A stretch of DNA of 54,500 nucleotides from a virus (taxonomy: Duplodnaviria > Caudoviricetes): positions 1-54,500 of IMG/VR virus record IMGVR_UViG_3300031450_000216, one strand, 5' to 3'. Shown here piece by piece: positions 17,589 to 48,077 of this stretch. Positions within the stretch are counted from its first letter, which is position 1, and every line of letters starts with the position of its first letter. The translations under genes and the position numbers were made by a program. Under the pieces are notes generated by a model. It did no database searches. It saw only the letters and a program-made list of their open reading frames with translations, and was not told where the DNA came from.

Positions 17589-18572
17589 TTACAGTGTCGC
17601 CAATGAGTTGATCAGCGTCGTTTGCAGCGCCTTGCCCCAGCCGCCGTCGTGGACGATGGTGAAGGGGATGTCGACTGCGTACGTTCCCCCCGCGTCGTCG
17701 AATTTGTTCCAGGCGTCGAACTTGATCGCGAGATCGAACTTGGCCGAGTAGGTCGCCGGGCCCGCGCCGATGGCCTGCGTGGAGAGCACCTCGATCCGCA
17801 GGAAGCGCGTCGCGCCCGCCCGCAGGACCGCGAGCAGACCCATCCCCGCCGCGTCGGCCTCGACCATCAGGTGTCCCTTGGCCTTCGGCTCGGTCTCGAC
17901 GCGCGCGGCGTAGCCAGTCACGGCGCTGTTGAGCGTCCACAGCGGCCCGTACTTGTCGCTGAGGCTGAACCCGACCTTCAAGGCGCGCAGGAACTTGGTG
18001 GTGCCCAGCGCGGCGCTGGTGGGGTCGAGGTAGACGTTGACCTGCGCGGGGAGCATCGGCACCAGCGGGATCGCGGACGGCGCGGCGGTGAGGGTCGCGC
18101 CGTCCGTGAAGCCGGTGCCAACCATCTTGCCCTTGAGGTCGATCGCGTCGCGCGTGAACTCCATGTCGAGCGTCGAGACGACGCCGCCCGTGAAGCGGTG
18201 GGCGCGCACCACCGACCCCTGCTCCACGGTGAACGACACGGCGGCGTCCTGGGCGGTGCTGTTGGGCGTGAAGACGTGCTGCTGCCCGGTTACGCCGCTC
18301 ACGGTGTCCACGGACGCCCCGAGCAAGCTGGAGAGCGGGTACTGGATCTCGTCGAACACCGCCTGACCGGACAGGTCGGCCTCGACCCACTCCTTGCCGG
18401 GGATGATCAGCGTGCGGTATTTGTTGCCCATCGGGCGGAAGTCGGCGGTCTGGGCGTTGAGGTGCGGCGCGATCGACAACGCCTGCAAGAGTTTGTTGCA
18501 TGGAACCGCCGTGGATTCCACCGACTCGACGCCGATCTGCACGACCTGGGAAATTGTGCTGCGCTCTGGCAT
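17589..18572 (-). CDS. Major tail (tube) protein
   Basis: VQIGVES..SFTVEQG motifs, size and position. Confidence 0.85.
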   Translation of the reverse strand: MPERSTISQVVQIGVESVESTAVPCNKLLQALSIAPHLNAQTADFRPMGNKYRTLIIPGKEWVEADLSGQAVFDEIQYPLSSLLGASVDTVSGVTGQQHVFTPNSTAQDAAVSFTVEQGSVVRAHRFTGGVVSTLDMEFTRDAIDLKGKMVGTGFTDGATLTAAPSAIPLVPMLPAQVNVYLDPTSAALGTTKFLRALKVGFSLSDKYGPLWTLNSAVTGYAARVETEPKAKGHLMVEADAAGMGLLAVLRAGATRFLRIEVLSTQAIGAGPATYSAKFDLAIKFDAWNKFDDAGGTYAVDIPFTIVHDGGWGKALQTTLINSLATL

Positions 18573-21650: not shown

Positions 21651-22601
21651 TCAATAGCGTAAAACTGCCGCTGGAAATCGGTTGGCTTCGATCTGCTGGT
21701 CGTACGAGATCACGTTCGAGACCTGCCAGCCGGCGCGGAAGACGACCCGCATGGCGACCATATCTTGCTGCGCCAGGTTATAGACAATGGCCCCGGTGTT
21801 ATCCTGGATGACCGCCTGATCGAGCAGCTTGTAGGTGATGTCCTGGCGCACGCCGACGATGAACTGCTCGCGCTCCATCGCCATCAACCGGACATTCGTG
21901 CCCGCCACGCCGCCAGTCGGGAACAGCCCGCGCATCGGATAGGCGATCGGGGAGCCATCGACCATGTTCAGGTCGGGCGCGAGGCGGTTCTCGTCCAGGC
22001 GCTCGCCCTGCGTGCTACGCGCGGCGCGGAATCGACCCTTTGCGCTCATCGCGGCCACGTAGCCGGTCGGTTCGTAGCCATCGGACTCCAAGAGCGCGAT
22101 GGCGGCGTCCAGGTCGCCGAAGAATGCGCCCGCCGCCGCGAGGCTGGCCTCGGTGAAGCTGTTCCCCGCCGCCGCCGCCGCCGCGTTGATGCCGACCGGG
22201 TAGGATGCCGGGGCGTTGGTGCCGAAGAAGACCGCCGCGTCGAACGTGCGCCCGATCGCCTCCGCAAGGAGCGGCTGGATCTCGCCCCACACGTCGAATG
22301 CGGTGTCGTTGATGACCGCCTCCGGGATCGGGACGATCGCCGCGATCTCCTCGATATTGAGGTAGCGATTGGTCCAGTTCACTTCCGTGGTCTGCTTGAG
22401 CCCCGTGTCGCCCGTGACGAAGTAGGCGGTCGGGAGGGCGGACACGATCGGGATGCGGACCTGGGCGCGCGAGACGGGGATGCGACGAAACATGGTCAGC
22501 GCGGCGGATTGCTGCACGACGCGACTGATCACCCCGGCCGCCACTTCCTCGGGGATCAGTGCCTGCTCGTCGGTACGGGAGATCACATTGTTGAAAGCCA
22601 T
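21651..22601 (-). CDS. Major capsid protein (HK97 fold)
   Basis: LIPEEVA..EEIAAIVPIPE..AIGRTFDAAVFFG..NLAQQDMVAMR. Confidence 0.93.
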   Translation of the reverse strand: MAFNNVISRTDEQALIPEEVAAGVISRVVQQSAALTMFRRIPVSRAQVRIPIVSALPTAYFVTGDTGLKQTTEVNWTNRYLNIEEIAAIVPIPEAVINDTAFDVWGEIQPLLAEAIGRTFDAAVFFGTNAPASYPVGINAAAAAAGNSFTEASLAAAGAFFGDLDAAIALLESDGYEPTGYVAAMSAKGRFRAARSTQGERLDENRLAPDLNMVDGSPIAYPMRGLFPTGGVAGTNVRLMAMEREQFIVGVRQDITYKLLDQAVIQDNTGAIVYNLAQQDMVAMRVVFRAGWQVSNVISYDQQIEANRFPAAVLRY

Positions 22602-23263: not shown

Positions 23264-23304
23264 GCCCCCCTTGCGACGGCATCGCGCCGTGTCATCCCGC
23301 GTCG

Positions 23305-23436
23305 GGCAACAGAAAAAGCGCCCCGCTGTCGCGCGGCACGCTCGGTGCTGCGGACAATCGGGGCGCTACGTCGCTGCGACGCGGTGCCTATTTCGATACT
23401 GCTGTTAGTTTAGGGCTAAACCTTCCGCTATGTCAA
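23305..23436 (-). promoter_or_regulatory. Head-operon promoter (TTGACA-N18-TAAACT) with hairpin plus U-tract leader
   Basis: -35 at 23436-23431, -10 at 23412-23407; AGCGCCCCG..CGGGGCGCTTTTT stem. Confidence 0.6.
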
Positions 23437-23464: not shown

Positions 23465-23519
23465 GCGTGGTCGGGCACCGGGGCTATGGGTAACACATAC
23501 TGCCTGGCCCGTGCCACGC
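23465..23519 (-). ncRNA. TIGR-like dual-spacer unit 5 (overlaps stop codon of TasA-like gene)
   Basis: gcgtggcacggg-CCA-GGCAGTATG-TGTTACCCA-TAGCCCCGG-TG-cccgaccacgc. Confidence 0.8.
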
Positions 23520-24410
23520 TCGCCACAGATCGCGCAACAGACGCTTCGCTAAGTGTCGCCGCGCGCGGTTGTCTACATGGACGTTCGGCGCGTCGGGCAG
23601 CTTCTCCCGCTGACGCTCCTTCTCCGCCAGATAGTAGGTGCGGTACTCGCCGTCGCGGTTATTCATCATCAGGAATGTGGCGATCACGTACATCGTGGAT
23701 CGCCGCGACGGGCTGTAGCCGTGCAACGCGGCTTCCTCGGGATCGGTGCGCTTGCCTTGGCGCTCGCCGTTGATCAGCGCCAGCCCCATGCGCTTCCAGA
23801 CTTTCGCCGGGTTGGCATAGTTGCTCAGGTCGCCGCACTCGCCGACGATCTGGGCGAGGCCGAGCGGGCCGATGCCGCGCACGCCCTCGACCCACGGCCA
23901 AACGGGTAACTCGCGCGCGAGGAGTTCCATACGCTTCTCTAACGGCTTGCGACTGGCTTCCAGCAACTTGCGCGCGTCCAGGAGCGGCGCGGTGTGGAGC
24001 GCGGCAACGGACTCGGCGTGGAGGAATTGTGCGAGGTCGGGGGCGATATCCTCAGCTTGGGTGACAACGATCAACTGATCGCCCCCGGCCTCGCTATCAT
24101 CTGCGGGATCGGCATCATGTCTCTGGTCATCAACCGCATAGTGGCTTCCCCCGCTCGATGCCTTCTTGCGTAACCGGGCGCGCTCCTCGGCTTTCAGCCC
24201 GGTATGGCGGCGATACACCGCCTCGATCTGGTTGTTCAGGCGCAACTCGGCGCGCAGCAGGTCTTGCCGCTGGCGGTGCGTCTCCTGAATCTCGGCGAGC
24301 AGGATGGCGGGGACGGCACGCTCCTGATGGTTGTCAGAGACCCTCTGGCCGTCCCCGCCCGATTGCGACATGTCGAGTATGGATACCACCGGCTCTGTGG
24401 TCGCAATCAT
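23484..24410 (-). CDS. TasA-like Nop/IS110 C-terminal-domain protein, no nuclease domain
   Basis: Coiled coil then WVEGVRGIGPLGLAQIVGECGDLSNYANPAKVWKRMGL..YRTYY..K..HVDNRARRHLAKRLLRDLW; no DEDD RuvC; TIGR-like units embedded. Confidence 0.82.
   Translation of the reverse strand: MIATTEPVVSILDMSQSGGDGQRVSDNHQERAVPAILLAEIQETHRQRQDLLRAELRLNNQIEAVYRRHTGLKAEERARLRKKASSGGSHYAVDDQRHDADPADDSEAGGDQLIVVTQAEDIAPDLAQFLHAESVAALHTAPLLDARKLLEASRKPLEKRMELLARELPVWPWVEGVRGIGPLGLAQIVGECGDLSNYANPAKVWKRMGLALINGERQGKRTDPEEAALHGYSPSRRSTMYVIATFLMMNNRDGEYRTYYLAEKERQREKLPDAPNVHVDNRARRHLAKRLLRDLWRAWHGPGSMCYP
24031..24094 (-). ncRNA. TIGR-like dual-spacer unit 4
   Basis: 16-bp stem-TCA-GTTGATCGT-TGTCACCCA-AGCTGAGGA-TA-stem (compensatory edge change). 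Confidence 0.78.
24103..24154 (-). ncRNA. TIGR-like dual-spacer unit 3
   Basis: gcgggggaag-CCA-CTATGCGGT-TGATGACCA-GAGACATGA-TG-ccgatcccgc. Confidence 0.8.
24306..24359 (-). ncRNA. TIGR-like dual-spacer unit 2
   Basis: ggcggggacgg-CCA-GAGGGTCTC-TGACAACCA-TCAGGAGCG-TG-ccgtccccgcc. Confidence 0.85.
24361..24408 (-). ncRNA. TIGR-like dual-spacer unit 1 (begins within the start codon)
   Basis: gattgcga-CCA-CAGAGCCGG-TGGTATCCA-TACTCGACA-TG-tcgcaatc. Confidence 0.85.
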
Positions 24411-24413
24411 CTG

Positions 24414-24983
24414 CTATTCCTCATCCGCCTGTCGGCGCAGTCGCTCCAACACGGCGTGCGGAATCGTTTTCTCGACGCACGACCCGTCGTGCATCGCTTC
24501 GTGGATCAACTCGAACCAGCGTGCCTCGTGACGGTTGGTCGTCTCCATGCGGCGGTAGTAATTCGCCGCGCCCAGGATGTCGGCGGGCGTGGCGTCGCCG
24601 AGGCGCTTGCCGCCCGGTAACGGATAATTATGTAACGTCCGCTCCACCATCGCCACGATCCCGAGGGTGCCATAGTCGGCCTTCTTTGCCTTGGGCGGTG
24701 CCGGGTGTGCCTGTTCGGGACGGAGCGGGAGCGGCGCGGGCGGCTCATGCGCGGCGCGGCGAAACGCCTGTCGCTGTTTCTGCGCCGCGCTGCGGATGGC
24801 AGACCAGAGCCCATCATCGATCATCGGCTCGATCAGTCGCTCGTATGTCGGGCGATCATCCAGCACCATCGCGCGCAAGACCAGGATCGCCTTGTCCCAA
24901 TCGCCGCCCACATCATCCAGGGCGATCCCGGCCAGCTTCGTCAGACCGTAACTCGATTCTTCCGGTTGTGATTGTGCCACCAT
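24414..24983 (-). CDS. Uncharacterised partner protein co-transcribed with TasA-like gene
   Basis: SD AAGGAGG; 3 nt gap to next ATG; helical C-terminal domain YPLPGGKRLGDAT..ARWF. Confidence 0.8.
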   Translation of the reverse strand: MVAQSQPEESSYGLTKLAGIALDDVGGDWDKAILVLRAMVLDDRPTYERLIEPMIDDGLWSAIRSAAQKQRQAFRRAAHEPPAPLPLRPEQAHPAPPKAKKADYGTLGIVAMVERTLHNYPLPGGKRLGDATPADILGAANYYRRMETTNRHEARWFELIHEAMHDGSCVEKTIPHAVLERLRRQADEE

Positions 24984-25015: not shown

Positions 25016-25076
25016 ATTCTAACGCACCGTTAGACTAAGTGCAACCCCTGTCGCTACAATACTAACGATGCGTTAG
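25016..25076. promoter_or_regulatory. Divergent promoters with two CTAACG-N3-CGTTAG operators
   Basis: Palindromes at 25019-25033 and 25062-25076; - strand TTGCAC-N17-TAGAAT; + strand TAGACT-N18-TACAAT. Confidence 0.8.
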
Positions 25077-25086
25077 ACTCCCCGAC

Positions 25087-25296
25087 ATGGATGAGGATCG
25101 ACTGATGGGCAGCAGGGAAGTCGCGGCGGAATTGGGGGTGCAGCAGTCGCGCGTGCGCCAGTTGGTATTGTCCGGCGCGCTCACCGGGCGCAAGATGGGC
25201 CGGGACTGGTTTTTCCTGCCGAGCGAGATCGCGCGCTATAAGCGGGAGCGCCCACCGCGCGGTCGCCCGCGCAAGCGTACTACGCCGAAATCTTAG
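25087..25296 (+). CDS. Excisionase-like (HTH_17) DNA-binding protein with C-terminal AT-hook-like RGRP
   Basis: LMGSREVAAELGVQQSRVRQLVLSGALTGRKMGRDWF..RGRPRK. Confidence 0.85.
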   Translation: MDEDRLMGSREVAAELGVQQSRVRQLVLSGALTGRKMGRDWFFLPSEIARYKRERPPRGRPRKRTTPKS

Positions 25297-25320: not shown

Positions 25321-25584
25321 TCAGTGTTGCTCGATCAACGATGCGAGGAGTTTCCGCCCTTCCCTGGCGACGATCTGGTGAACGCGCGCCTGTGTGATGC
25401 CCCCGCCGTAAGTCCGAGCGGTGTCGGCATAGGTCAACCCGTCAACAACGACGGCGCGCAGGATACGCCAATTGCGCTCATTCGCCATGTTCGCCGGGCG
25501 GGAAGCGGGGAAGATCGGGCGTAGCGCCTGCACAAGGGGAGCGAGACGTGCCCCGCGCCAGATCGTCGGGTCGCTCGTATCCAT
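25321..25584 (-). CDS. Sigma70 region-4-like HTH protein
   Basis: ERNWRILR..DGLTYADTAR..ITQARVHQIV. Confidence 0.65.
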   Translation of the reverse strand: MDTSDPTIWRGARLAPLVQALRPIFPASRPANMANERNWRILRAVVVDGLTYADTARTYGGGITQARVHQIVAREGRKLLASLIEQH

Positions 25585-25612
25585 CGCACATCCCCGTGCC
25601 GCGCACACAGCA

Positions 25613-25819
25613 TCAAGACGCCACCTTATAGCCCTCTTGCTCCTCATTATGCCACACCCGCACGCTCCCCTTGCCCCGCCTCCTGGGCGGCGTCGGCTCG
25701 TACCCGAGCAGACGATTGAGCGCGGCCAACTCCTGCAAGCGCGCCTGGCGCACCTGTTCCCAAAACGGGCGGGCGGGGTCGTCTGTGGCGAGGACGTGCG
25801 GCGTCGACTCGGGAATCAC
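25613..25819 (-). CDS. Small hypothetical protein
   Basis: GTGA overlap with upstream gene. Confidence 0.5.
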   Translation of the reverse strand: MIPESTPHVLATDDPARPFWEQVRQARLQELAALNRLLGYEPTPPRRRGKGSVRVWHNEEQEGYKVAS

Positions 25820-26067: not shown

Positions 26068-27117
26068 CTAATCCGCCGCCACGGCCTCGATGCCGCGTAG
26101 CACGTCCCGTAGTGGCCTTTGCACGGTGAATGGACCCCACTGGTTGCGCCCTTCCTCCACGAAGTCGCTCAGGGCGATCTCGCCGCGTTGGAATGGTTCC
26201 CACGCGCCCACGGGGATCATTTGCCGCTGCGTCGCCTCCGGTTGCCGGTCGAACCAGTCCGGCCCCGTCTCCGGTTGCGGCACATCGGGGATACCGGGAT
26301 AGCCGAGTTCCGCCCAACTGCGAACTACGGGCGTCAGGGCGCACCTACACGAGGCGTGGCGGCCAAAGTCCTGACCGAGCGGGTAGATTTTGCCATCCAG
26401 CGCGAGACAGGCCAGACATGTTCTCGGTCCGTGCGCCGCGATGCGTTTATACGCCGTGATCACATCGTTCTGTCGGTATGCGGCCAACGTGCTATCGCGA
26501 TAGGCATCCAACATGGACGATCGCGCCAGTCGCAACGCCCGATTGCGCCCCAATCCCTCGACCGCCGCTTCCAGCGCCTTCGCCGCGATCCTGGGCGACT
26601 GCCCACGCACCAGCGCCGTCGTCAGCGCCTCCGACGTCGCCGCCCTGGCGTCCGGGCCGAATGTTGACAAGAGCGTCCCCAACGGCTGCCCGTCCCCAAG
26701 CGCCCCCACAAGCTGCTGCAACGCCTCGACCGGCACCCGGTCCCACGCCACGACCACGCCGGGCGGTGGGGGACCGAGCGCCGCGCGGGCCAGCGCTTCC
26801 GCGTGACTCGCCGCCGCCGCGATCGCCGCCGCCTGCTGCTGCCGGACCAGCGGGCCCGCTTGCACCGCCAGCCCGTTGATCTGCGCCTCCACTTGATCGA
26901 GCAATGCCCGGTAACGTCGCTCTTTCGCGAGCCACGCCGCATCGATCGTCTCGCCGCGTGCCTGCGCCTGCTCGATGGCGTCCGTGAGCGCGCGGAGATC
27001 GCGGCTGATCGCGTCCCACGCCTGCCCGTAGGCGGTGACGAGACGCGCGGCGGCGTCCGCCTCCAGGCGGGCACGTTCGGCGCGTTGCTGCGCGGTCAGG
27101 ACGGCGAGGGTCGTCAT
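26068..27117 (-). CDS. Head morphogenesis / minor capsid protein (MuF, SPP1 gp7-like)
   Basis: RALRLARSS..RTCLACLALDG..HASCRCALTP. Confidence 0.9.
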   Translation of the reverse strand: MTTLAVLTAQQRAERARLEADAAARLVTAYGQAWDAISRDLRALTDAIEQAQARGETIDAAWLAKERRYRALLDQVEAQINGLAVQAGPLVRQQQAAAIAAAASHAEALARAALGPPPPGVVVAWDRVPVEALQQLVGALGDGQPLGTLLSTFGPDARAATSEALTTALVRGQSPRIAAKALEAAVEGLGRNRALRLARSSMLDAYRDSTLAAYRQNDVITAYKRIAAHGPRTCLACLALDGKIYPLGQDFGRHASCRCALTPVVRSWAELGYPGIPDVPQPETGPDWFDRQPEATQRQMIPVGAWEPFQRGEIALSDFVEEGRNQWGPFTVQRPLRDVLRGIEAVAAD

Positions 27118-45188: not shown

Positions 45189-46130
45189 CTACTCCCCTCC
45201 AAGCTTCAGGTTGCTGTACTTGTTCACGATGCGTGCGGTATGGGCCGAGACGGTGGCACCGTTCTCCAGCATGACGGGATCGTCGTTATCCCCGTGTCTT
45301 GGCTGCCCCCTGCCCAGGCGCACCGGCTCGATGTCGTCACCCCATACCCGCTGATTCAGGTATTTTGCGGGGTAATCGACGTAGCCCTCGGACCACTTAC
45401 GGCCTAACTTGCGTGCAGCCACGTCGGCGATAAGCACCTCGGTGCGCTCGGCATCGGGATCGATTCTTTTCCAGGCCCGCTCGGCATCGGGCCGATGCTG
45501 CTTGACGGGATACTCGGCATACCAGCGGTCGAAGCGTTCTTGCTGCGCCCTATTGAGCGTGGTCGGCTTGGGAACCGCCCGCACCTTCCCGCCGCCGCTA
45601 GGCGGTGATGCGGTGTCCGGTTGCCGCGCGGGGGGGTCGGGGGGCGTCTCGGTGGGATCGGGATCGGGTAGGGGTACGGGATGGGTACGGGATGGGTACG
45701 GGGCGGTGTTATGTGACGTGTTAGTAACGGCGTTACGTTTCGCGTTAGTAGCGGGCGGCGTAACGTCATCCTTGAATTGGCCTGTCTCGCCCCGGTTTCT
45801 CTCCCGCCATTCCTGCTGTCTCTTGGCGTTGTTGGCTCTGTCGGCCTTTACCTGCTCGCCGCTCGGGTTGTAGATCAGGTAGTCGTGGATGCGGTACCCC
45901 TCGGGGATTACTTCCCAGAGTCCGGCGTCAACGAGTTCGGCCACGCACTCCCGCTCGGCATCCACCATCGCAGCGACCATACGGACAGCCCCAGCCTTGA
46001 TCACCCCGTCGGTAAGCTGGCTGCCGCAGTAGGTAAGCGCGGCGAGATAAACAAGCTTGGCGTCCTTACCGAGTTCGACCACTTTCGGATTGGCGAAGAA
46101 CTGATCGTCCAGTCGAATCCACGGCATCAC
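45189..46130 (-). CDS. Phage replication initiator protein
   Basis: WIRLDDQFFANPKV..LVDAGLW..IHDYLIYNPS; low-complexity linker; FDRWYAEYP..YPAKYLNQRVW. Confidence 0.85.
   Translation of the reverse strand: MMPWIRLDDQFFANPKVVELGKDAKLVYLAALTYCGSQLTDGVIKAGAVRMVAAMVDAERECVAELVDAGLWEVIPEGYRIHDYLIYNPSGEQVKADRANNAKRQQEWRERNRGETGQFKDDVTPPATNAKRNAVTNTSHNTAPYPSRTHPVPLPDPDPTETPPDPPARQPDTASPPSGGGKVRAVPKPTTLNRAQQERFDRWYAEYPVKQHRPDAERAWKRIDPDAERTEVLIADVAARKLGRKWSEGYVDYPAKYLNQRVWGDDIEPVRLGRGQPRHGDNDDPVMLENGATVSAHTARIVNKYSNLKLGGE
45653..45768. repeat. Iteron-like repeats inside initiator gene (candidate origin)
   Basis: GGGTACGGG x3 at 11-nt period and GTAACG/CGTTAC palindromic motifs. Confidence 0.5.
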
Positions 46131-46633
46131 CCCAACCTCCTGCCATGCGTCTCGCTATGGCAGTCGACGCAGAGCGTGATACCGTTCTGTACCTCAAAGC
46201 GATGCTCGGGGTAGAGGGCGAACGCCTTGATGTGGTGTGCTTGCAGTGGGCGATCAGTCGTCCCACATTCCCGACACCGATAGCCATCTCGGTCGAGAAC
46301 TGCCTTGCGCCATGCCTTGTACTCGGGGGTATGCCTGAGTTCCTGATCCGATGGTTCCGAACCGAAGCCCCAGCGGATAACATCAGTCATCCAGAAGTTG
46401 CCTCGTATCTCATCCCATAGTCCGAGATCAACGAGGCGCGTAACGCTAGCCGGGGCGTCGTCGATTTCCGCCTCCGCTGACAGGCGCGGAATTACACGCG
46501 CCGGGATATATCCGTCCTTGCTTGCCTGCGCGCAGTAGCACAAGCCCACGAGGTAGAGATCGCGCGCGTCGCGCCCAGCAGCCATCACCTTGGGGTGGCG
46601 GAAGAATTGATCGTCCACCTTGACCCAACTCAT
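46127..46633 (-). CDS. Initiator-like N-terminal domain fused to HNH endonuclease
   Basis: WVKVDDQFFRHPKV.. plus WRKAVLDRDGYRCREC..HHI..NGITLCVDCH. Confidence 0.85.
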   Translation of the reverse strand: MSWVKVDDQFFRHPKVMAAGRDARDLYLVGLCYCAQASKDGYIPARVIPRLSAEAEIDDAPASVTRLVDLGLWDEIRGNFWMTDVIRWGFGSEPSDQELRHTPEYKAWRKAVLDRDGYRCRECGTTDRPLQAHHIKAFALYPEHRFEVQNGITLCVDCHSETHGRRLG

Positions 46634-46635
46634 AG

Positions 46636-47055
46636 CTACCCTCTGAGCGCGGCGACGAGGAAGGCGTCGAAGCCGTCCATGTCCACCGTATCGAGCACGC
46701 GGTCGCCTTTGCGCTCCCCCATCCATTTCAGCGCGCCCTCCGACCAGCCAGGACCGTCGAGCACGACCAGACACAGGCGATGCGTCCGCCCGATCGCCAT
46801 CGTGAGATAGGGCAGCTTCTGATCGGCGGAACCGCTGTTGTGCTGGAACCGCGCGATGATCGGCAGTGCGCCGTACCCCGGCACCTCGCACAGCAGATCG
46901 GCCTTGAACGGTTGTCGGTATGGCGTTTCGCCGATGGGGACGTTCGTTTCGTACGCGATGCCGCGCTCGGCACAGATCGCGCCCAGCCGTACGATCAACG
47001 CTTGATGACTGTCGTCCGCTTGCGGGCCGGGACCGGGCATCTTCTTCGTGCTCAT
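46636..47055 (-). CDS. PD-(D/E)XK-fold nuclease-like protein
   Basis: ADLL..IIARFQHNSGSADQKLPY..VVLDGPGW. Confidence 0.7.
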   Translation of the reverse strand: MSTKKMPGPGPQADDSHQALIVRLGAICAERGIAYETNVPIGETPYRQPFKADLLCEVPGYGALPIIARFQHNSGSADQKLPYLTMAIGRTHRLCLVVLDGPGWSEGALKWMGERKGDRVLDTVDMDGFDAFLVAALRG

Positions 47056-48077
47056 GCCGCCTCCGTGGGGTAGCGCGTCCACACATCGCCGAGGTGCGCG
47101 ACAGTGCGCGCATACCGCTCGGTTTCGTCGCCGATATAGATGAGGGCGGAAGGGAATGGCGCGGCGTCGGCCTCGCCATCGGGACCGATGAAGCGCACCC
47201 GGCCACCGATGAAGCAGATCGGGAAATCGCGCAATCGGCGGAACCATTCGGTATCGGTGCGCGCCGGGACTAGGAGGATCGCGGCCTCGATCTCGCGCCG
47301 CTCGTAGGCGTGCACGGCACGCGCGACCCACCCGCCAATCTCTCTGCCATAGGGGGGGTTCACATAGACCCGGCCATGCCAGGGCGCGATCAGTCCGTTA
47401 TCGTCCTGGGTCCAGTGCTGTGCGGCGGGAACGTTCGGCGTGCTCTTGCTGTTGGAGCAGGGGTCCAGATCGATGGCATCGAAGAAGTCCACCACCGTCT
47501 CGATTATCGCGGGCGGCGTATACCATTCGGGCGTGTCGGAGGTGAAGTGCACAGCATGGCGAGCCGGTAGGGCCTCGGGGGCATCCCAAGGATCCGCAAC
47601 GGGATCGGCGAACAGATGCTGATCCTGTTCGATGTCGGCGCGGAAATCGCGAACTGAATAGGTGGGGTTCTCCGCCTTACGATCCTCGGCATGGGCGATC
47701 CATAGTGGCGGGTCGGTCGTCTGTCCGGCCTCGATATAAAAACTCTTCGCCAGTGGCAGATCACCGTCAATACGTGTTGACGGCTCGACGGATTCCCACG
47801 CATCTGCGAGCTTCCGTGCCCACTCACGGCTGATGGAAAATCCACGCGCCACCGAGGTTAGTGCGTCGTCGTTTTGCCGCTGCTTGCGCGCCCGTGCCTC
47901 CCAGAGACAATGGGCCTGCACCAACCACGCCCGCTTGCCGAGTTCGTCGGCGCGCTGGTACGTGGCGATCAACTGATCGTCGTCCATCCGGGGGATCAGA
48001 TCGTGGAGGGTAGTAAACGTCGCTTCCGTAAGCGTGACCGCGTGGAGCGCTTCACCGGCTGTCGGGGAAATCGTCAT
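47052..48077 (-). CDS. Phage DNA N6-adenine methyltransferase (Dam-like) with N-terminal extension
   Basis: EWYTPP..DLDPC..WHGRVYVNPPYG..LLVPARTDTEWF. Confidence 0.9.
   Translation of the reverse strand: MTISPTAGEALHAVTLTEATFTTLHDLIPRMDDDQLIATYQRADELGKRAWLVQAHCLWEARARKQRQNDDALTSVARGFSISREWARKLADAWESVEPSTRIDGDLPLAKSFYIEAGQTTDPPLWIAHAEDRKAENPTYSVRDFRADIEQDQHLFADPVADPWDAPEALPARHAVHFTSDTPEWYTPPAIIETVVDFFDAIDLDPCSNSKSTPNVPAAQHWTQDDNGLIAPWHGRVYVNPPYGREIGGWVARAVHAYERREIEAAILLVPARTDTEWFRRLRDFPICFIGGRVRFIGPDGEADAAPFPSALIYIGDETERYARTVAHLGDVWTRYPTEAA

Follow-up and report, generated by a model that had tools for sequence, protein, structure and literature searches.

Can one stretch of phage DNA be at once the coding sequence of a protein and the set of guide RNAs that this protein would use? 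The question is raised by a 308-aa ORF of a tailed virus (Caudoviricetes; IMG/VR record IMGVR_UViG_3300031450_000216). The window analyzed here is the whole viral record, 54.5 kb long and 67% G+C. The ORF, referred to below as tasA, encodes a relative of the Tas proteins of TIGR systems, and five hairpin units lie in it or at its end on the same strand. We consider it very probable that the locus is a tailed-phage stem-loop TIGR-TasA system carrying its whole guide set within its own gene. Stem-loop TIGR arrays with TasA were reported by Faure et al. 2025 (PMC12045711, in the portion available). Moreover, the accessible text of a preprint of September 2026 (Xu et al. 2026, bioRxiv 10.64898/2026.09.09.750476) describes arrays that can be embedded in tas genes, at places where the encoded protein is disordered. 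Because guides inside tas coding sequences are described there, the phage locus belongs to a known kind: intragenic stem-loop tigRNAs are already known, and the present one is a further case.

The minus strand of the window is a tailed-phage late operon. It contains genes for the large terminase and the portal, a Mu-F-like head protein (26068-27117), a scaffold-like gene, the major capsid gene (21651-22601), a tape-measure gene and an endolysin gene. Two genes on this strand separate the Mu-F gene from the scaffold gene, namely a 189-aa ORF (24414-24983), called the partner gene here, and tasA (23484-24410). The partner gene stops 3 nt ahead of the tasA start, and a Shine-Dalgarno-like GAGGA (24418-24422, minus strand), as read from the sequence, lies 7 nt ahead of the tasA ATG at 24410. 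A strong hairpin followed by a T run is found at 23313-23367 on the same strand (fold of 23296-23400: -59.2 kcal/mol, z -4.96). Directly after the last of the five units, and ahead of this stable hairpin, there is a promoter-like TTGACA-18-TAAACT (region 23305-23436, minus strand). In L099, the closest DNA relative of the locus, positions 1846-1955 read by eye as TTGACG-18-TATAGT followed by hairpins and a T run, without sequence similarity to the window. The hairpin is likely the terminator that ends the partner-tasA operon, although together with the promoter-like site it might also belong to a small RNA or a leader. Just upstream of the partner-tasA cassette, a gene for a small HTH_17 protein (25087-25296, plus strand, with a promoter-like site at 25031-25060) and a gene for a sigma-70 region-4-like protein (25321-25647, minus strand) break up the late structural operon. 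Elsewhere in the window, the ORF at 46127-47206 (minus strand) joins a segment resembling a replication initiator to an HNH endonuclease segment at its C-terminus. Rfam gave no match within the window.

The tasA product is, judging from its domain content and modelled fold, a Tas protein without a nuclease, in which a coiled-coil hairpin precedes a C-terminal domain of the Nop/IS110 type. PF02371 (IS110 C-terminal/Nop) was the sole domain found in the Pfam scan, at aa 177-260 (E = 1.5e-4, above the curated cut-off). The scan detected no RuvC or HNH domain in the ORF, and the N-terminal DEDD/RuvC-like catalytic domain PF01548 is absent both from the scan and from the AF2 model. This lack of a nuclease domain places the protein in the TasA type. 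In a comparison with PDB sequences, a profile built from 31 relatives matched TIGR-TasR (9MTY) at E = 2e-22 and TasH at E = 2.5e-6. The AF2 model (pLDDT 82.9) consists of a helical hairpin (residues 35-86 and 124-166, pLDDT > 90) followed by a helical C-terminal domain (171-300). Its low-pLDDT segments are 1-33, 87-123 and 301-308, the first of which is also predicted to be disordered. Foldseek ranked TasR (9mty, E = 1.1e-6) and TasH (9w04) first, followed by ISCro4 and IS621 (E about 3e-3) and then by Prp31/Nop5 (E of at least 0.6). The RNA-binding C-terminal domain is thus homologous to that of the solved Tas proteins, and the coiled-coil hairpin ahead of it is a predicted dimerization scaffold. 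The original prediction had called the ORF TasA-like on account of an IS110 C-terminal/Nop domain without RuvC or HNH, and had proposed a structural comparison with TasA, Nop5 and IS110. Both the domain content and the order of the fold neighbours agree with that assignment. In GenBank phages we found only one weak TasA relative, in Rhizobium phage RHph_X2_25, where it is annotated as hypothetical.

The five units have the form stem-CCA-N9-TG-N4-CCA-N9-TG-stem and all lie on the minus strand. Unit 1 (24361-24408; spacers CAGAGCCGG and TACTCGACA) occupies aa 1-17 and has an exact core. Its stem starts with the G of the best-placed ATG, the start codon, and closes with 8-9 bp (fold z -3.55). Unit 2 (24306-24359; spacers GAGGGTCTC and TCAGGAGCG), also with an exact core, covers aa 18-35 and has a closing stem of 11-12 bp (z -4.52). 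Unit 3 (24103-24154; spacers CTATGCGGT and GAGACATGA) lies at the tip of the coiled coil (aa 86-103). It has an exact core and is the weakest of the five, with 6 bp beyond a 3x3 internal loop and a fold z of -0.80, which alone is not significant. Unit 4 (24031-24094; spacers GTTGATCGT and AGCTGAGGA) is at the same tip (aa 106-127); its outer boxes are TCA..TA and its stem has 16 bp with one mismatch (z -5.05). Unit 5 (23465-23519; spacers GGCAGTATG and TAGCCCCGG), with an exact core and an interrupted closing stem (z -1.63), spans aa 298-308 and the stop codon and reaches 19 nt into the 3' UTR, the tasA stop TAG being the first three bases of its spacer B. The low-pLDDT segments of the protein coincide with the units: units 1 and 2 with aa 1-35, units 3 and 4 with aa 86-127, and unit 5 with aa 298 onward.

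Positions of the units and the difference between all ten spacers, as proposed in the original prediction, were re-read from the sequence and hold throughout. The proposed layout of edge and loop repeats does not hold, the layout being of the stem-loop type instead. For the latter, the available text of Xu et al. gives a rule in which box C (CCA, CGA, CTA or CAA), a 9-nt spacer and box D (TG or CG) occur twice, with half-sites at most 15 nt apart, a stem of at least 5 bp and an edit distance of at most 1. In our re-implementation this rule accepts unit 1 (stem 9) and unit 2 (stem 12). Unit 4, with variant boxes and a 16-bp stem, fits the relaxed phases of the published scan. Units 3 and 5 fail the strict stem rule as re-implemented and yet are recovered by the covariance model described below. 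The locus therefore combines what marks a stem-loop TIGR array (boxes, 9-nt spacers and a closing stem) with several units on the tas strand, within or next to tas, whose spacers differ (5 units, 10 spacers). [quoted passage not shown] That text also states that CUU is frequently present at the stem base and marks the processing site. By eye, no CTT was seen at or within the stems of the five units. Since the preprint says "frequently", CUU is not strictly defining.

Chance does not account for the cores. The window contains 6 matches to the exact core CCA-N9-TG-N4-CCA-N9-TG, whereas 100 dinucleotide shuffles gave 0.08 on average (largest 1). Five of the six are on the minus strand, in the tasA ORF or at its end, and four of these are the cores of units 1, 2, 3 and 5; that of unit 4 is a match with 2 mismatches (TCA..TA). 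Four exact cores lie inside the ORF, a count reached by none of 20,000 synonymous-codon shuffles (largest 3, once), while the largest count in 20,000 codon-order shuffles was 1. A pattern frequency no higher than in codon-shuffled controls would have spoken against the original prediction, and the observed count exceeds all the synonymous shuffles. A scan pooling all published box combinations was dropped, as it gave many 5-bp chance matches in this GC-rich genome, and was replaced by a scan of one box pair at a time.

A covariance model (R1), for which 118 units from other loci and none from the window were used, was run over the whole window on both strands with filters off. Its top five matches in the 54.5-kb genome are exactly the five proposed units: unit 2 (48.4 bits, E = 2.3e-7), unit 4 (39.3 bits, E = 1.4e-5), unit 5 (30.1 bits, E = 9e-4), unit 1 (22.5 bits, E = 0.028) and unit 3 (20.9 bits, E = 0.058), the last two being weak on their own. 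The matches that follow score at most 18.8 bits and are on the opposite strand or are plain hairpins, so that R1 finds no further unit on either strand of the genome. The two remaining exact cores, at 23667-23698 (minus strand) and at 17988-18019, were rejected as units because neither has a closing stem or an R1 match; R1 gives the former 9.9 bits and does not list the latter. The core at 23667-23698 lies inside the conserved core of the Nop domain (aa 238-248). It is probably due to chance, although an exact match is a priori unlikely.

The relation of the units to the reading frame is informative. The first base of box C is at codon position 2 in unit 1, position 3 in units 2-4 and position 1 in unit 5. 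Units in all three codon phases indicate a feature of the nucleotide sequence and not a peptide repeat. Units 3 and 4 are flanked on either side by a conserved helix read in the same frame. From codon 13 to the conserved helix the sequence contains no ATG, GTG or TTG, so that unit 2 would be translated from any canonical start. On the evidence of the frame, units 2, 3 and 4 must be translated. A spacer of 9 nt corresponds to three codons, and its replacement therefore never shifts the frame. L099 does not have the stop found in spacer B of unit 5 and reads on. Among relatives (loci L001-L178), only 5 of 181 ORF-embedded units begin at codon position 1. The rarity of this phase fits the consensus A after the TG of spacer A, which would then read as a TGA stop. 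The reading frame thus constrains the ways in which guides can be embedded.

The units were compared with those of L099. The L099 protein is 77% identical and the two loci align along the whole gene. Spacers are identical at only 30 of 90 positions (33%) and loops at 8 of 20. By contrast, the boxes are identical at 45 of 50 positions, the ten-base stems at 85 of 100 (85%), and the remaining coding sequence at 561 of 685 (82%), including 160 of 229 third codon positions. The stems show compensatory changes, T-A to G-C in unit 1 and C-G to T-A in unit 2, and in unit 3 the stem and boxes were kept and the spacers replaced. Spacers thus evolve more quickly than near-neutral sites, with the RNA framework preserved. 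In L099 some boxes of units 1 and 5 are degenerate (CCT, CCC), which implies that individual units can decay. In contigs of a relative from run X4, at a low depth of 2.4-3, differences cluster in the cores of units 5 and 3, which is a weak hint.

Similar units are widespread among relatives. In the current dataset there are 424 intact relatives at E <= 1e-3, all of them unnamed and most on viral contigs. From viral, genome and metagenome collections 178 loci were taken, of which 149 (639,896 nt) were kept after removal of duplicates. The exact core is present 334 times on their tas strands and absent from the opposite strands. A closing stem of at least 5 pairs accompanies 293 of the 334 cores, as compared with 346 of 5000 random positions. 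By the published stem-loop rule, as re-implemented, 117 of the 149 loci carry at least one strict unit, 386 units in total, and 751 of the 772 spacers are distinct. Homologues lacking the units or having invariant spacers would have counted against the original prediction; most of the loci carry units, and nearly all spacers differ. Many units overlap the ORF, with 36 in the conserved protein span (29 loci), 103 in an N-terminal extension of the ORF, 38 in the C-terminal tail and 4 spanning the stop codon. The others are upstream beyond an in-frame stop (132), spanning such an upstream stop (8), upstream ahead of the first start codon (6) or downstream (59). In 28 of the 84 loci with at least 2 units, all units overlap the maximal tas ORF. 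A gap between half-sites other than 4 nt was seen in 42 of the 386 units, and gaps of 7-12 nt occur in L020, L027, L053, L078 and others. This minority suggests a sub-clade with a longer inter-spacer loop.

The closest known systems are the stem-loop TasA proteins, represented in the accessible literature by PlTasA from a Peromyscus leucopus gut contig, Bifidobacterium longum TasA and Minisyncoccota TasA. A cryo-EM structure of PlTasA with a stem-loop tigRNA was described by Guan et al. 2026 (bioRxiv 10.64898/2026.08.11.744272, in the text available). Compared by their descriptions there, these systems and the phage locus share a nuclease-less coiled-coil and Nop protein; hairpins with two 9-nt spacers in CCA/TG boxes and a different stem for each unit; and in-frame units in disordered segments, together with a short C-terminus without the Y/H processing loop. 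The phage locus differs in that all five detectable units are confined to the ORF and its end, with no other in the genome, in that the stem bases have no CUU, and in the presence of a conserved upstream partner gene. The dual-repeat systems TasR and TasH (TaTasR, 9MTY; SpTasH, 9W04) have the homologous Nop domain and coiled coil, and likewise two 9-nt spacers with box C/D motifs. However, they carry RuvC or HNH nucleases, which the phage TasA does not, and use fixed 36-nt guides with edge and loop repeats in long arrays outside the gene, whereas the phage guides are closed by stems.

More distant parallels exist. The IS110 bridge-RNA recombinases (IS621, 8WT6; ISCro4) share PF02371 and a bispecific structured RNA with the phage system, but the latter has neither a DEDD/RuvC catalytic domain nor transposon ends, and its fold scores to these enzymes are weaker. 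With Nop5 and Nop56/58, the core of archaeal and eukaryotic box C/D snoRNPs, it has in common a coiled coil and a Nop domain, as well as a guide RNA in which two spacers are framed by C and D boxes. Here the likeness in fold is only remote (E of at least 0.6), there is no fibrillarin or L7Ae partner, and the targets of the phage system would be DNA and not rRNA.

How might such a locus work? We infer, by analogy with the related systems, that the mRNA doubles as precursor of the guides and that TasA is a DNA-binding protein. TasA, a coiled-coil and Nop-domain protein without nuclease, is predicted to dimerize. The same strand encodes the five hairpins, the large loop of each holding two 9-nt spacers framed by CCA and UG. 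The units would be excised from a transcript that includes tasA, and a TasA dimer would bind each of them to form an RNP. Spacer A may then pair with one DNA strand and spacer B with an adjacent stretch of the other strand, giving an 18-bp address with no PAM. Binding could block transcription or another DNA transaction at the target. The units occupy segments of the protein in which any sequence is tolerated (the N-terminal tail, the tip of the coiled coil and the C-terminal tail). The available text of Xu et al. is consistent with this scheme: TasA is described as an RNA-guided transcriptional repressor, and small-RNA-seq of B. longum TasA gave processed intragenic guides. Whether guides are co-transcribed with tas or made from internal promoters is left open in that text. 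The public runs that contain the phage sequence are DNA runs, and the assemblies in which the phage occurs are rock metagenomes.

The original prediction had proposed to search the spacer pairs against host, plasmid and phage databases. Here targets were sought in the phage's own genome and, for unit 2, in viral contigs, and nothing above chance came of it. All spacer pairs were compared with the own genome in both strand arrangements with gaps of 0-2, and none matched with up to 2 mismatches. When up to 4 mismatches were allowed, the 10 patterns together gave 18 matches, while 200 shuffled controls averaged about 2.1 for each pattern. Two exact scans with unit 2 over viral contigs gave 1 and 0 matches, which is the chance level. 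The cut rule and the "8-nt 3' overhangs" stated in the available portion of PMC12045711 jointly fit neither strand arrangement as worked out here.

The absence of matches in these searches is also compatible with a different view of the units, in which they are decaying relics or mainly cis-acting mRNA elements by which TasA controls its own message, the guides, if any, being elsewhere. The stems of units 3 and 5 are interrupted, the boxes of units 1 and 5 have degenerated in L099, and the unit 1 stem sits at the start codon after the Shine-Dalgarno-like site, where binding or folding could gate translation. Nevertheless, the boxes and stems are kept, with compensatory changes, and the spacers are randomized faster than third codon positions, as one would expect of working guides. 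Furthermore, no other unit was found in the 54.5-kb genome, and the intragenic units of a related TasA gave processed RNAs in a purified RNP, as the accessible text of Xu et al. reports. We therefore consider this view distinctly unlikely.

The ORF might instead be the remnant of an IS110-family transposase, with hairpins that resemble transposon ends or bridge RNA and have no guide role. Its Pfam and PHROG names do say "transposase", and IS621 and ISCro4 are among its fold neighbours, but the DEDD/RuvC domain is missing and TasR and TasH outscore the IS110 recombinases in both sequence and fold searches. It would also be hard to explain why intact relatives, 424 in number and mostly on viral contigs, carry the same units, and why the gene is part of a conserved two-gene cassette and is not flanked by transposon ends. 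A transposase remnant is thus very improbable. Still less weight, practically none, is given to the possibility that codon usage in a GC-rich gene, or a peptide motif that recurs in the protein, produced the pattern as a side effect. The protein alignment does show G-D-G-Q and A-V-P repeatedly at the positions of the units. However, the units are in three different codon phases, synonymous shuffling did not once in 20,000 trials reach the observed number of cores, the cores are never on the opposite strand, and many units of the relatives are outside ORFs altogether (132 upstream and 59 downstream of 386). The reading as a stem-loop TIGR-TasA system with intragenic guides remains strongly preferred.

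The partner gene adds a further element to this system. A homologue lies directly upstream of tas on the same strand in 49 of the 118 related loci with more than 800 nt of upstream sequence, and no other neighbouring gene recurs among them. The 189-aa protein is predicted to be helical. It has no match in Pfam, PDB sequences or PDB folds, and its profile search returned 10 unnamed proteins. In the Atlas it is similar to viral hypothetical proteins only, with scores below 0.8. We found no mention of such a gene in the available portions of the stem-loop TIGR-TasA literature. Theoretically, the partner gene and tasA may form a cassette that regulates itself. TasA would bind the units in its own mRNA, guide maturation would destroy the message and unit 1 would gate translation, so that protein and guide levels would be coupled. 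The partner would act as a hitherto undescribed accessory factor, either in the processing of guides or in the in-frame renewal of spacers. Taken jointly, own-mRNA binding, a gate at unit 1 and an accessory partner make up a tentative proposal, which is rather unlikely to be right as a whole.

In a sense, the phage tasA locus is a clean natural example of one DNA stretch that is both a protein-coding sequence and a guide-RNA set. It is suited to experiments on three questions that the TIGR papers, in the text available, leave open: how guides are released from the transcript that encodes their effector, how spacers are renewed without known adaptation machinery, and what the targets of phage TasA systems are. 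The conserved partner gene is a candidate for a missing factor. The comparison with L099 bears on the renewal of spacers, as these outpace third codon positions while the frame is kept.
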